From a virus (Duplodnaviria > Caudoviricetes), in IMG/VR virus record IMGVR_UViG_3300034106_004043: a DNA stretch of 64,000 bases; one strand, written 5' to 3'. The number at the start of each line of letters is the position of its first letter. Positions within the stretch are counted from its first letter, which is position 1. Below the pieces are notes generated by a model. It had not been told where the DNA came from and ran no database searches. It saw only the letters and a list, made by a program, of their open reading frames with translations. Position numbers and translations under genes: made by a program. Positions 4,210-22,711 of this stretch are shown one piece after another.

Positions 4210-4983
4210 TCAAAAAAAATTGAGGTCGGAGTTGGAAGAATTATCTTTATTAAATTTATCATTCCATTCTTTTATCCTTGAAATAAGTTCATCAATAGTA
4301 ATTGAGCAAGATGTTTTTTTTACACTATTTTCAGAATACTTTAATAATTGACAGTTTGCCGGATGTTTTATTATTTCAGGGTCTATTTTATTAATGAAAC
4401 CTTCTTTAACTGAATACATATGGTCCTTACTGACCCCATTTAAATTATTACCTTTATTTGAAGGACTATACCATCCTAATTTTTTTAAATCAGTGGTGTT
4501 AAATTCTGCTTCAAAAGTTTTGAAGTCAAAGTCAAATTCACAAGACGGTCTATAAAACTTATAATATTGGTATCTACAATCATCACAAGTTATTTTATAT
4601 TTTGGTATTTTTTTTTCAAGATTACAAGAACGACATTTTTTATTTTTTTCTTTTACCGGCCCATAGTGTTTTTTTAATGATTGACTTATTTTATTCTTAA
4701 CATCTTCTGTCAACCCATTTCTTTGTAAATTATTATAAGAAGCTGAACAATTTAAAGAACAAAAAAATCTTTCTTCACTAATATATGAAACAAATTCATC
4801 ACCACAATACTTACAACTTTGTTTATGACTTTTAGATGGTAATTGTGATTTTAATTTTAACCTAAAACAACGATTGTTAATTGTTTTTTTTGACACGCCA
4901 AAAATTATAGATATTTCTTTGTGTGTTTTACCTTCTTGGATTAACTCCTTTAAGGTATTATCATTTTGTTTAGTCCATTTCAT
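4210..4983 (-). CDS. Putative HNH-type homing endonuclease with N-terminal HTH and Zn-finger-like segments
   Basis: SKDHMYS...HPANCQLL...ENSVK; several CxxC; TATTTATA just upstream of ATG 4983. Confidence 0.65.
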   Translation of the reverse strand: MKWTKQNDNTLKELIQEGKTHKEISIIFGVSKKTINNRCFRLKLKSQLPSKSHKQSCKYCGDEFVSYISEERFFCSLNCSASYNNLQRNGLTEDVKNKISQSLKKHYGPVKEKNKKCRSCNLEKKIPKYKITCDDCRYQYYKFYRPSCEFDFDFKTFEAEFNTTDLKKLGWYSPSNKGNNLNGVSKDHMYSVKEGFINKIDPEIIKHPANCQLLKYSENSVKKTSCSITIDELISRIKEWNDKFNKDNSSNSDLNFF

Positions 4984-5031
4984 ATCTATAAATATATGAA
5001 AATGAGTTTTTTTCATAGTTGAACTTAATTG

Positions 5032-5119
5032 AGTGTTCGGTCAGATTCGAACTGACGATGTTGCTATTAACAAAACCAATTTTGCAGATTGGCGGTTTCA
5101 ACCACTCACCCACGAACAC
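5032..5119 (-). tRNA. tRNA-Cys(GCA) with long variable arm
   Basis: gtgttcg/cgaacac acceptor, U73; ccaat-CTGCAAA-attgg; 19-nt variable region; gtcag-TTCGAAT-ctgac. Confidence 0.85.
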
Positions 5120-5146
5120 TTATAATTTAATACCAAAAAAGTCAAG

Positions 5147-5234
5147 AGGAGAGCAACAGACTCGAACTGTGCCCAACTTAATGGGTTACTGTTTAGCAAA
5201 CAGTCGGGGACACCATTTCCCTCCTTTACTCTCC
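5147..5234 (-). tRNA. tRNA-Ser(GCU)
   Basis: actgt-TTGCTAA-acagt; long variable arm; ggagagt/gctctcc acceptor. Confidence 0.85.
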
Positions 5235-5238
5235 AATG

Positions 5239-5313
5239 TGTGTCTAGCGGGATTCGAACCCGCGATGACCTGAACCACAATCAGGCGACTTAAACCTCTT
5301 GTCAATAGACACC
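5239..5313 (-). tRNA. tRNA-His(GUG)
   Basis: cctga-TTGTGGT-tcagg; G-1 present; gcggg-TTCGAAT-cccgc. Confidence 0.9.
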
Positions 5314-5319
5314 GTGTAG

Positions 5320-5402
5320 TACCCCCTGTAGGACTCGAACCTACACGTCTTTAAGACAATTGTTTCTAAGACAACTCTGACTACCAGTTCCAGCAAGGGG
5401 GT
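5320..5402 (-). tRNA. tRNA-Leu(UAG)
   Basis: gttgt-CTTAGAA-acaat; variable arm; A73. Confidence 0.9.
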
Positions 5403-5409
5403 AAATAAG

Positions 5410-5496
5410 CGGAAGAGATAGGACTCGAACCTACACATCAGTTTCCCGATACCGGTTTTCAAGACCGGGGCGATACCAATTACGCTTTACTCTTCC
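5410..5496 (-). tRNA. tRNA-Ser(UGA)
   Basis: ccggt-CTTGAAA-accgg; long variable arm; G73. Confidence 0.92.
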
Positions 5497-5758
5497 AAGT
5501 TCCCCACCTGAGATTACAGTGAGTAGATTTTAACGGGTTACTCTGACTGTTTCGAGAACCATCACTATTCTGGGTTCGACGCCAGACCTAGCTTTTTCAT
5601 TAGTGTCTTACCACATAAAAACCTGTCAATCCTATACGTCGGAGCTGCGGATATGCTTCACTTTAACCCGAATCGATTCCCCATTAAGGTCGGGGGCTTT
5701 TTACTACCACTACTTTTTTAAAGAATGTAGCCAATCTTGCCGAGTATCTCTTACTCAT
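5497..5758 (-). ncRNA. Candidate structured ncRNA in the tRNA operon
   Basis: GC-richer spacer with hairpins; 3' end shares CTGTAATCTCAGG with the 1 kb RNA at 18360-18372. Confidence 0.45.
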
Positions 5759-5760
5759 TG

Positions 5761-5949
5761 CAATCAGAACAGGATTCGAACCTGTATGATGTATTTCCCT
5801 TACATCTCGGAATTAAGAGTATCATAGAAACAACTTAATCCTACTAACTTACTTGTTGCGTCTACCAAGTTAACATTGACCCCGTAGTGGATTCTAACCA
5901 CATTGTTTTTACATCTAGAACGGGGTTGTTAACATTCCGCCACCTGACT
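5761..5949 (-). ncRNA. tRNA-like RNA A (189 nt) with D-loop insertion
   Basis: AGTCAGG/TCTGATT acceptor; GGCGGAAT...TGGTAGACGC split D arm; ACAGG-TTCGAAT-CCTGT T arm. Confidence 0.7.
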
Positions 5950-6074
5950 ATATTTTATTTCAATAATCTAGACCAAATCTTAATTACCATATCTCTTTGT
6001 GGAGATGGTTTTAGTTTCGACCACCTATCTATCCAATTCTTTATTTGTTCCTGTGTCATTCTTATTTAATCTTG

Positions 6075-6155
6075 CAGTCAGGACAGGATTTGAACCTGCA
6101 TTGTCACCCCTTTATAGTGTACACCGCGAGCTGCGTTACCATTCGCCACCTGACC
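6075..6155 (-). ncRNA. tRNA-like RNA B (81 nt), no canonical anticodon arm
   Basis: GGTCAGG/CCTGACT acceptor; GCG/CGC D stem; GCAGG-TTCAAAT-CCTGT. Confidence 0.7.
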
Positions 6156-6373
6156 TATGTTAAAACACCCTTATCTATCCAACTTACAGGTGTTATGGCT
6201 GTCCTCATTGCTGAGTTAGGAATAAACTGTCTTGCTCCCCTTCGTGATGGGTTTTACCGACCTTAGTAGTCAACTAGAAGGTAATATATATACAAACCTT
6301 CAACTCTTCCCTATGGTTATCATACCATTTCTCATCGTATGGGACATACTATCTGATGATTAGTCAGAACGTG

Positions 6374-6440
6374 TAGTCAGAACAGGATTCGAACCTGCAA
6401 TCTTCCTTGTTAGGAGCTCTGCCAATTGAGTTACCTGACT
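6374..6440 (-). ncRNA. tRNA-like RNA C (67 nt), 4-nt anticodon loop
   Basis: AGTCAGG/TCTGACT acceptor; tcct-AACA-agga arm; GCAGG-TTCGAAT-CCTGT. Confidence 0.7.
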
Positions 6441-6636
6441 ATTTTACTATTAGCTCTTTAGCATTCTACTCCCTGCATGACGGAATTGTATCTTACTTAG
6501 CCCCACGTCCTCAGTACGGGTACCAAAGTTCACTAATAGTTGAGGATGAGAAGTCCTCTGTGTTGTAAGCATATTGTTACTTTTAACAACTTCCTTTTTT
6601 ATCAATACCTCCTTTCTCAAGGGAACAACACGTTTG

Positions 6637-6751
6637 TAGTCAGGGCCGGACTCGAACCGGATAAGTAACCTTACTTCTAATGGAATCTCCAAGTGTCGAG
6701 AACCACTAGCTCTATGGATTTGGGACCGTCCCTCATTACACCCACCTGACT
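6637..6751 (-). ncRNA. tRNA-like RNA D (115 nt), expanded core
   Basis: AGTCAGG/CCTGACT acceptor; TCCGG-TTCGAGT-CCGGC; TATCTTTG promoter element at 6756-6763. Confidence 0.65.
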
Positions 6752-6774
6752 CCGACAAAGATATGGTAAGTTTT

Positions 6775-7080
6775 TCAATCTACCAAATCTTTTTCCACAT
6801 CTTCATACCATTCTTCAACCGCAAAGATTAATTGAATAAACTCGCAACCATCATCGTCCGATTCATATCTTACGTGGAACCCACCTGTTGATACATCTGT
6901 TTTTTCTTTAAACGCCATCTTTAATAATCGTCTCGCTTCTTGTCTCAATTCAGGAACAGTTGGAATACCTTCGTCAGAAGCCGCCCACTCCCAATTCAAT
7001 ACTTCCATTACTTTTCGGACTTGTTCAAACTTGAAGTAGTCCATTATGCTATCAATAGCATCTTGTTGTTTCTGTGTCAT
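6775..7080 (-). CDS. Hypothetical protein
   Basis: ORF track; typical composition. Confidence 0.75.
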   Translation of the reverse strand: MTQKQQDAIDSIMDYFKFEQVRKVMEVLNWEWAASDEGIPTVPELRQEARRLLKMAFKEKTDVSTGGFHVRYESDDDGCEFIQLIFAVEEWYEDVEKDLVD

Positions 7081-7081
7081 A

Positions 7082-7501
7082 TTATTTATCTAAATCTTTA
7101 TCATTATCCATCAACTCAATAAGAGCTTCCTTTTGTTTCTCTTTCTTCACCATCTCAATCATCTTCTTGATTACCGCAATGTTTCCTTCTCTCTTATCTT
7201 TGAAGAAATCAAAATACATCGGTGGAAACTTCCAACTCTTAATCGTATAGTCAAATCCCAAAATCTCATTTGGTGTGGTGTCAGTTTTAATATCCACAAA
7301 ATATGAATAATTCTCTTCAAACCATCTAAATGCCTGTGAGAAGATTGGCGCTGCAATATTTTCAGACACTCCGTTGGTGTATACTCTACTTGTCCGTAAC
7401 TCCCTGTTGTCCAAATGACTGAAACATCCATAACAACGCTCGTTAAATCCAAGATTCTTGAGTTCCGAAGCAATTTCGTATGTAACAAATTCTTTTTCCA
7501 T
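7082..7501 (-). CDS. Hypothetical protein
   Basis: Start MEKEFV directly after TATCTTTG at 7506-7513. Confidence 0.75.
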   Translation of the reverse strand: MEKEFVTYEIASELKNLGFNERCYGCFSHLDNRELRTSRVYTNGVSENIAAPIFSQAFRWFEENYSYFVDIKTDTTPNEILGFDYTIKSWKFPPMYFDFFKDKREGNIAVIKKMIEMVKKEKQKEALIELMDNDKDLDK

Positions 7502-7542
7502 AATACAAAGATAAGACAAGTTTATTAATAAAACAAAAAAAG

Positions 7543-7613
7543 TTGTCCCGTCTGGACTCGAACCAGAAATACAACAGTCAAAGTGTTGTGTGATGCCATT
7601 TCACTACAGGACA
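7543..7613 (-). tRNA. tRNA-Gln(UUG)
   Basis: caaca-CTTTGAC-tgttg; full cloverleaf. Confidence 0.92.
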
Positions 7614-18322: not shown

Positions 18323-19343
18323 AAAAAAACCCGTCAATTGACAGGTCAGATTAGAAAAGCCTGAGATTACAGCTTATGTTAAGAAACTTTTGAAGGATTA
18401 TTGTTTCCCTTCGTATCCACCACCTTTTGGGTAGTATTTCTTAGTGACGGTATTTTAGGTGTACCACTCCTTGAGGTTTGAATTACTCTATCAGTACTTA
18501 ACTCTTTCCGAGGTTGCCACCCCAGTTCGTCCTTGCGGGACTAAAGGTTTTTCTTAACAATACACATTGACTTGGGGTCTCTGTATGCAATGAACGGCTC
18601 ATTACTATGTAGTCACCTTTCACTCAAACCTGATGGACACTTTTCCTTTGTTATTTTGTAATAATTTTAGGGTTGTGTTGTAGATGTGTCAGAGTAGTGG
18701 TCCAACATAAGCTCTGTCTCCTTTTGAGCGACAGAATACTAAACTACTCCGTGAAGTGTCCCCACCTCCATATTTCAAGATTACTTCATAAAGAGACCTT
18801 GGTAGGTCTTCCTTAGGGATAGTAGCGACACCACTCGTTCTCCATCTTACCTTTCGGTTTTAAGTCCTCTATCATATTGGGACCCGCAATAGTGTAACTG
18901 GATGGTCACATTTCTTACAGAGTTCCTATGGGTTATTCTTATCGTTCTTCCGAACTCAACTTGAGAATCTACTTTCCCAAGTCACCCAACCATTTTCCCT
19001 ACGAAGTTATCCTCGGTACTTACGGTGTGGTGATATCCCACTTGTGTACTTGAGTTCAATTCCCCTTACGGGGTTTCAAACCGCAGTCTCCTCAACACAG
19101 GGGAGACCACTTTATCCTACTTTCGTAGTTTATTTAAGGACCATACACGGCCCATTATCGTTTATCAGTTACACTCAAGCTGCGGACTTTCTGCCATTTA
19201 CTCGGTGGATAATATCACCGACACTTTGTGTTTCCTGAACGGATAATCTTTTTGTTTCAAAGAACGCTTTTTCAAAAAGAGAAGAAGGAGGAATCTTTAC
19301 AACCTACCGAAGTAGGAATCTTTACAACCTCTTCATCTCAAAT
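18323..19343 (-). ncRNA. Large (~1 kb) structured non-coding RNA
   Basis: No credible ORF; GC-richer; minus-strand GAAA, GUAA and UUCG tetraloop hairpins; promoter upstream and terminator at 18323-18346. Confidence 0.75.
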
Positions 19344-22339: not shown

Positions 22340-22711
22340 CTATTTTAAAGTTAACAAGTATTTCAACTGGTTAATTTCCGCTAACATTTCGTCTCTAATG
22401 TTTAATAAATCTGAGTCCATCTTTGGGTCGTAGCTTTCAGACAATCCCACCAAGTATTCACATACTAAATTAATAAACTCAGTTAACTCAAGTTCTTCAA
22501 TATCTCTACCCGCTAATGTATAACCGCCTGTAAAACTAGGTCTTCCGTGTTTACCCATACAAACTTCAACAAACTTATCAATCAAATCATCAAGTGAATC
22601 ATAAATACGCCCATAAGCCTCATGTCTTGAGAATGATTTTGTTTGCCAGTGTAGTATTCTAAACTGAGTTTGTGTTTCTAGTAAAAATTTAACAACTTCC
22701 GAATTTTTCAT
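22340..22711 (-). CDS. Ferritin/Dps-like four-helix protein (DUF5856-like)
   Basis: LHWQTKSFSRHEAYG...DKFVE...LLNIRDEML...KYLLTL. Confidence 0.8.
   Translation of the reverse strand: MKNSEVVKFLLETQTQFRILHWQTKSFSRHEAYGRIYDSLDDLIDKFVEVCMGKHGRPSFTGGYTLAGRDIEELELTEFINLVCEYLVGLSESYDPKMDSDLLNIRDEMLAEINQLKYLLTLK

Follow-up and report, generated by a model that had tools for sequence, protein, structure and literature searches.

Viruses have turned to tRNA mimicry repeatedly, and the surface that most tRNA-handling machines read is the elbow. RNA1 of T5 is a stable RNA whose function has been a puzzle for decades. tmRNA is characterized by a G3:U70 acceptor, a tag reading frame, and pseudoknots, and the archaeal bulge-helix-bulge (BHB) motif by two 3-nt bulges with a 4-bp helix between them, carrying the splice sites. 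T5 RNA1 (AY543070, 30501-30644) is annotated as a "tRNA-like stable RNA with unknown functions" and is an annotated precedent for the kind of host scaffold described here. In the elbow of tRNA, residue 19 pairs with residue 56, and G18 intercalates and contacts Psi55 (PMC4810234). Elbows of the D/T-loop type also occur outside decoding tRNA, and in the TYMV TLS, MALAT1 mascRNA, and bacterial YrlA they engage tRNA-binding factors (PMC4810234).

Element A and its anticodon-less scaffold

The window is a stretch of 64,000 nt of viral DNA (IMG/VR record IMGVR_UViG_3300034106_004043), and element A is an anticodon-less Leu-type tRNA-like scaffold RNA of 189 nt on its minus strand (5949-5761, including discriminator G5761). 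Read 5′ to 3′, element A consists of the acceptor strand AGTCAGG (5943-5949), U8, the D-arm 5′ half GGCGGAAT (5941-5934), a 65-nt insert (5933-5869) that follows directly, a U, the D-arm 3′ half TGGTAGACGC (5867-5858) with the host's own G18G19, a 72-nt cargo (5786-5857), a canonical T arm, ACAGG-TTCGAAT-CCTGT (5769-5785), and the acceptor 3′ strand TCTGATT (5768-5762), which pairs with AGTCAGG in a stem that, in this copy, includes two G·U pairs. The first-pass annotation, made from the letters of the sequence, had described a Leu-like D arm split by a 65-nt insert at 5869-5933, and the two D-arm halves do flank an insert at exactly those positions. Folding of the full element predicted the acceptor, the T arm, and the insert as proposed. 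The cargo replaces the anticodon and variable arms and has no 7-nt anticodon loop; its interpretation as an anticodon arm plus an intron was ruled out, as no 5-bp stem with a 7-nt loop could be drawn around a Leu anticodon. ARAGORN reported no gene at 5761-5949, and Rfam gave no tRNA match there even at an E value of ≤10. Around element A, 15 to 18 tRNAs were called by ARAGORN and Rfam, element A itself not being among them.

Element A has the features of the T5 RNA1 kind, namely, a paired acceptor, a Leu-type GG D arm (GCCGGAATTGGTAGACGG in T5), a canonical T arm, a variable cargo where the anticodon arm would be, and a location in a tRNA gene region. In contrast to element A, T5 RNA1 has no D-loop insert and does not match the covariance model of the insert described below, and the near-invariant acceptor of the window scaffold lineage differs from that of T5 RNA1. 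The exact acceptor/D-arm 16-mer AGTCAGGTGGCGGAAT was found in at least 120 IMG/VR loci, and most elements among the 16-mer matches listed were without a D-loop insert. Across the scaffold family the cargo is hypervariable and the ends are constant; the discriminator is G in element A and A in its relatives. Given constant ends and variable cargo in at least 120 loci, we conclude that the host family is very large and that the insert is a minority feature of it.

Other RNA features were noted nearby and in related loci. The window contains further scaffold paralogs on the minus strand (6075-6155, 6374-6440, and 6637-6751) with the same acceptor and T arm, other cargos, and no D-loop insert, and two of these three score 38 bits with the Rfam tRNA model. 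Unrelated hairpins of 33 to 70 nt occupy the same D-loop site in L003, L006, L009, L012, L013, L018, L019, and L063, some of which have other acceptors and higher G+C. A tRNA-like element called by neither ARAGORN nor Rfam lies at 5150-5236 on the minus strand, with an acceptor (GGAGAGT/GCTCTCC), an anticodon arm (ACTGT-TTGCTAA-ACAGT; GCT, Ser), a long variable arm, the T arm ACAGTTCGAGTCTGT, and an aberrant D region; one part of this element, TTAATGGGTTACT, recurs at 5530-5542. GOLLD RNA (Rfam RF02032, 322 bits) is found on the minus strand at 18358-18751. The spacer downstream of scaffold C (window 6162-6373; L017 884-1120; L020 and L034) is 92% conserved, occurs after different scaffolds elsewhere, and may be another non-coding RNA unit. 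In L017 (IMGVR_UViG_3300027734_000044), ARAGORN called a 494-nt "tmRNA" on the minus strand (1762-2255; tag EEAEMLLAA*) about 500 nt from the insert-bearing scaffold, which may be either a phage tmRNA-like gene or a false call. Finally, a non-coding unit of about 260 nt directly follows element A (window 5501-5789, compared with 4748-5036 in L164), and in L164 it sits about 700 nt upstream of the element A ortholog. The different placement indicates that RNA units are shuffled between close relatives.

Fold and covariation of the insert

The insert begins and ends with GTTAAC (minus-strand positions 5928-5933 and 5869-5874), as had been remarked earlier, and the two copies pair with each other as an outer helix, P1. 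Inside P1 is an internal loop with a single unpaired A on the 5′ side (5927, at least 90% conserved) and four unpaired residues, CAAT, on the 3′ side (5875-5878). The four residues have the length of N73-CCA; AAT and the G that follows are invariant and the C is at least 90% conserved, a conservation that is partly set by the search pattern. P2 is an acceptor-like 7-bp stem in which ACCCCGT (5920-5926) pairs with ACGGGGT (5879-5885), and its 3′ strand is entered from the 3′ strand of P3 via U5886. P3 and its loop (5887-5901) comprise GTGG (5901-5898), TTAGAAT (5897-5891), and CCAC (5890-5887), flanked by U5902 and U5886. Both the 7-bp stem and the T-arm-like hairpin had been proposed from inspection, and both are present (5926-5920/5885-5879 and 5901-5887, respectively). 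Between P2 and P3 lies the 18-nt linker J (5902-5919), a D-loop surrogate in which G5912 is nearly invariant and G18-like and U5911 covaries with A5895 as in a 19:56 pair.

The minimum free energy structure of the isolated 65-nt insert was exactly the proposed one, at −19.4 kcal/mol, compared with −10.9 ± 2.8 kcal/mol for shuffled sequences (z = −3.0; 0 of 200 as good). The 7 bp of P2, a U·U layer (U5902/U5886), and the 4 bp of P3 are predicted to form a 7 + 5 acceptor/T stack of 12 layers. Compared with a tRNA minihelix of the kind recognized by RNase P, the CCA enzyme, or TruB, in which a 12-bp coaxial acceptor/T stack ends in a free single strand on the 3′ side, the 7 + 4 + U·U layers are present and the 3′ side is not free, as four unpaired nucleotides and then P1 follow. 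The resemblance of the hairpin to a T arm was compared with chance expectation: the motif GGTTNRAATCC occurs seven times in the 64-kb window, where 0.34 occurrences are expected, and all seven are on the minus strand within tRNAs or tRNA-like elements.

Relatives of the insert, hereafter the module, were collected by pattern searches. A flank pattern consisting only of the two D-arm halves separated by a gap of 45 to 75 nt retrieved 34 loci from IMG/VR, about 25 of which had the same insert between the same flanks, with unrelated cargos and the same T arm and acceptor. An insert-specific pattern retrieved 17 viral and 37 metagenome loci, including some from Tara and another marine assembly, and the module is carried by about 60 related loci on viral and metagenome contigs. 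The pattern used to gather most sequences prescribes GG/CC in P3, some of the T loop, GGGG in the 3′ strand of P2, and CAATG, and invariance at these positions is thus partly imposed. Loci found from the flanks alone (e.g., L004, L021, L031, and L033) have the same architecture, with changes at pattern-fixed positions. A covariance model of the module, R1, scored true copies at 55 to 94 bits and everything else at no more than 17 bits in 1.5 Mb of loci, and it found a single copy in the window.

Several weaker candidates were set aside. A weak R1 match at window 5749-5821 was element A's own T arm, a weak second match in G012 was the T arm of an ordinary scaffold, and L182 was a real tRNA matched by chance. 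The hairpin inserted in L003 has the same P1-P2-linker-hairpin-P2′-P1′ layout, is capped by a loop that is not a T loop, and scores 15.9 bits with R1. The module pattern had no matches in prokaryotes (185,579 species, one genome per species), blastn of window 5500-6700 against GenBank phages gave no match, and Rfam searches of the window region and of the stand-alone copies, at the gathering score and at an E value of ≤10, gave no match for the module.

Comparison of element A with its relatives indicated that the module is both conserved and covarying in about 40 distinct sequences, and chance is thereby excluded. In alignment A1, a plain MAFFT alignment of 41 sequences, 98.2% of the cells at proposed pairs held standard pairs, compared with 36 to 50% for slid partners. 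Compensatory changes were found in 7 of 14 pairs of A1, and none of 500 shuffles was as good; moreover, RNAalifold predicted P2 and P3 de novo. In the model-fitted alignment A3, which is biased toward the structure, 97.2% of cells were paired and 10 of 17 pairs were compensatory. By helix, P1 had 93.7% of cells paired and compensatory changes in five of six pairs (A3), P2 had 98.7% of cells paired and three compensatory pairs, and P3 had all cells paired and two of four pairs compensatory. At least nine different P1 sequences of 4 to 13 bp were found; because most were not palindromic, the GTTAAC palindrome of the window copy is incidental. G·U pairs were seen in the tRNA sense strand only, which favors RNA over a DNA-level element. 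As P1 covaries, it is under selection, as expected for a domain that is retained in the mature RNA. We conclude that the anatomy of the fold, as read from aligned sequences, is supported by covariation.

Covariation also extended to a candidate tertiary contact. Linker residue 9 and T-loop base 3 were U:A in 21 and G:C in 10 of 35 sequences, with no discordant combinations and with other states in the remaining four; in raw MAFFT columns the same pair was UA in 20 and GC in 6. Four co-changes of the pair were placed on the best tree, the support of which is weak, such that only one co-changing pair falls on well-supported branches, a level below that of a formal phylogenetic test; the pattern itself is clean. 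The linkers of L162 and L155, for example, are nearly the same and diverge at just this base, one sequence having G:C at the pair and the other U:A. The G preceding the covarying linker base is at least 90% conserved, and the linker is 18 to 22 nt long across copies. All 35 copies had a 7-nt T loop with U1 and A5, the residues that form a reverse-Hoogsteen pair in the T-loop motif, with the variants UUAGAAU, UUCGAAU, UUAAAAU, UUGAAAU, UGAAAAU, and, in L033, UUCGAGU; the G-C closing pairs of the loop are set by the search pattern. A covarying 19:56-like pair preceded by a G is what a tRNA elbow would predict, and the G-N pattern of the linker appears to be the G18-G19/Psi55-C56 rule of that elbow. 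Together, the P2/P3 stack and the covarying linker pair indicate that the insert is a self-contained 7 + 5 acceptor/T minihelix with its own D-loop surrogate. The original suggestion that one tRNA-like unit lies within another is supported by the 7-bp stem of the insert on a T stem of 4 bp plus U·U, by its T loop, and by a covarying G18G19-like dinucleotide.

Exchange of the module between scaffolds and its occurrence in genomes

Modular assembly had been suggested from the single copy in the window, and comparison of loci bore it out, as the module was found with different cargos, was present or absent beside the same cargo, was part of a chimera, and occurred alone. Element B of the window (6155-6075) is without the insert, and L017, L177, and L178 combine the element B cargo with the insert. 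The cargo beginning with ACCCAAAG is uninserted in L014, where the module resides in another scaffold, and inserted in L026 and L028; further pairs of scaffolds with the same cargo are L090 versus L157, L071 versus L159, and L044 versus L020. In the chimera L017, the 5′ half and the module are 98% identical to those of element A, the cargo is 96% identical to that of B, and the downstream flank is 92% identical to that of C; by sequence, L017 appears to be the expected product of recombination in the constant scaffold segments. In L153 the module is in a scaffold with a different acceptor. Moreover, the module is found without any scaffold on an irregular hairpin in L161 and on a 13-bp stem in L155 and L187, which are intergenic and lie behind a sigma-70-like site. 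The site in L155 matches at 11 of 12 positions and is located just upstream, and the L155 fold has a z score of −6.2. The module is the only sequence that the stand-alone loci L155/L187 and L161 share with the window.

Whole-record searches found exactly one module in each of seven carrier phage contigs of 119 to 261 kb, which hold 1 to 15 scaffolds each. Among the scaffold-bearing genomes without the module are one contig of 246 kb that has terminal repeats and another of 271 kb with a completeness rating of 99%, and since the majority of scaffold-bearing phages are without the module, its role is dispensable. The modules of the window and of G005 differ at 3 of 65 positions (95% identical), and only 7 of the 91 window open reading frames (ORFs) match G005; similarly, G011 shares 4 to 8 of its 146 ORFs with other module-bearing genomes. 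The module is thus kept at 90 to 98% identity across phages that share almost no proteins. We conclude from these comparisons and the covariation above that the module has an elbow-type pair, occupies the D-loop alpha position, behaves as a single-copy exchangeable unit, and is autonomous.

A protein partner was sought by phyletic pattern, and the one candidate was rejected. When six whole contigs were compared, the 134-amino-acid protein DUF5856/phrog_858 at first appeared in all module-bearing genomes and was missing from two module-free ones; however, a profile search found DUF5856 in the module-free genomes G006, G008, and G009 and gave no match in G004 and G012, which carry the module and are incomplete. 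DUF5856 is widespread in these large phages with or without the module, and in the window it is encoded at 22352-22702 on the minus strand, with the PHROG name "starvation-inducible regulator."

Interpretation and comparison with known tRNA-like RNAs

The interpretation that we favor, with moderate confidence, is that the insert is an autonomous "top half with elbow" domain of tRNA carried on an anticodon-less scaffold, where it would constitute a second tRNA-like recognition surface. The outer P1 (4 to 13 bp) leads through the conserved 1 × 4 internal loop (A/CAAU) into the 7-bp P2, the 3′ strand of which connects through the U·U layer to the 4-bp T stem with its 7-nt T loop, in a stack like that of a tRNA minihelix. 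The G-N dinucleotide of the linker (18 to 22 nt) would dock on the T loop as G18-G19 does on Psi55-C56. Displayed from the D-loop alpha region, 2 nt before the host G18G19, the module would give element A two elbows. It is an optional accessory present once per genome, exchanged between scaffold paralogs, probably via recombination in the near-invariant flanks, and predicted to be expressed alone on a hairpin as well. We infer that the module acts at the RNA level as a handle or a decoy, engaged by some T-arm- or elbow-reading factor. Candidate readers may include RNase P, RNase Z, the CCA-adding enzyme, modifiers of the TruB/TrmA type, a domain of an aminoacyl-tRNA synthetase, the ribosome, or a protein of the phage or of a defense system.

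The module could instead be removed from the transcript, as an intron or through processing by RNase P at the 5′ base of P2 and by RNase Z or exonucleases on the 3′ side, to leave a split or re-ligated scaffold. What RNase P and RNase Z measure is an acceptor/T stack of 12 layers together with an elbow (PMC4810234), and the 5′ and 3′ flanks pair like a leader and a trailer, with exactly four unpaired bases after P2; paralogs and orthologs with an exact "empty site" also exist. However, the pseudo-3′ end is CAAU, not CCA, and the −1/+1 residues are A/A, not the usual U/G. Moreover, the insert boundaries are directly opposite one another at the base of P1, which is not BHB geometry, 65 nt is far below the size of a group I intron, no intron or self-cleaving ribozyme family was matched in Rfam at an E value of ≤10 (window 4800-7600 and stand-alone copies), and the stand-alone copies have no exons to join. 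The covariation of P1 likewise is that of a helix kept in a functional RNA. The excisable element envisaged by the first-pass annotation gained no support from these comparisons, and we consider removal of the insert quite unlikely. We regard it as doubtful, too, that the domain is an architectural brace whose only effect is to stabilize or reshape the scaffold, for instance by covering or shifting the host elbow or by contacting the cargo, with no separate ligand. A brace would agree with the emergence of the insert so close to the host G18G19, where it could affect the host elbow, and with the unrelated hairpins found at the same D-loop site in eight loci, but not with the scaffold-free copies. 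Nor is the module tied to cargo type or size (cargos are about 33 to 130 nt); it is missing from other scaffolds that carry the same cargo, and a genome has one copy regardless of how many scaffolds it contains.

Much less probable than either is a DNA-level element with no RNA function, such as a palindrome-bounded MITE-like insertion or a recombination or restriction site. The window copy is bounded by an HpaI-type palindrome and the module occurs in different genomic contexts, but P1 is non-palindromic in most relatives, and the compensatory and G·U changes make sense on one strand only. The loop bases and the tertiary pair are conserved, no target-site duplications and no terminal inverted repeats beyond P1 were found, and the orientation of the module is always that of the tRNA genes. 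Chance likeness, or pseudogene debris in a degenerate tRNA-Leu gene, is scarcely credible: the two acceptor G·U pairs of element A and its G discriminator where relatives have A would suit decay, but the recurrence of the module in some 60 loci, the gap between its R1 scores and all others, its covariation, and its 95% identity across phages that share almost no proteins would not.

Returning to a second tRNA-like recognition surface as the favored interpretation, high identity across phages with almost no proteins in common, one copy per genome, and carrier swapping point to a specific, portable molecular interaction. A broader proposal, which we offer as speculative and rather improbable in its entirety, is that some large aquatic phages use a portable single-copy "second elbow" RNA, in a carrier or alone, to capture or decoy a specific elbow-reading machine. 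Such targets might be a host enzyme of tRNA processing or modification, a tRNA site on the ribosome, or a defense nuclease directed at tRNA, and if the proposal is true, it would represent an RNA-only phage route to manipulating host tRNA biology. Element A is a natural tRNA scaffold that displays a second folded RNA from its D loop. As a 65-nt unit defined by covariation, the module is an easily synthesized RNA for pull-down, modification, and cleavage assays, and it may help to reveal what the anticodon-less tRNA-Leu-type phage RNAs, a very large family, do. No described equivalent of the nested module was found in the literature; a 2026 preprint on three tRNA-mimic families was considered as a description of it and covers other RNAs. 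We conclude that the module is a new structural form of tRNA mimicry.

The module is most readily described by its likenesses to known systems and its departures from them. Like the acceptor/T minihelix and elbow of tRNA, it has 7 + 5 layers, a 7-nt T loop with U1 and A5, and a G whose 3′ neighbor covaries with T-loop position 3. Unlike tRNA, it has no D stem, anticodon arm, variable arm, or free 3′ CCA, and its ends are clamped by P1 via the 1 × 4 loop; in addition, its 19:56-type pair is mostly U:A and the fifth layer of its T stem is U·U. In the tRNA-like domain of tmRNA, too, an acceptor and a T arm are accompanied by a D-loop surrogate that has no stem and docks onto the T loop. In contrast to tmRNA, the module has no G3:U70 (P2 is without a G:U at position 3), no tag frame, no helix connecting to an mRNA-like portion, and an acceptor end that is not free, and ARAGORN reported no tmRNA in the window. 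Archaeal BHB introns in the D loop resemble the module in that an extra segment interrupts the D loop of a tRNA-shaped gene, whereas the module has no BHB, is found in phages of bacteria, is conserved and structured with its own tertiary pair, and also stands alone. YrlA and bacterial Y RNA, characterized by a Ro-binding basal helix, gave no Rfam match at an E value of ≤10 in the window region or the stand-alone copies, and the ends of YrlA enter via a stem that replaces the anticodon arm, whereas those of the module enter via the acceptor-like side. What distinguishes the module from the TYMV TLS, mascRNA, and YrlA together is that it is nested within another tRNA-like RNA, and if its assignment is true, it would be the first natural tRNA-like structure nested in another.
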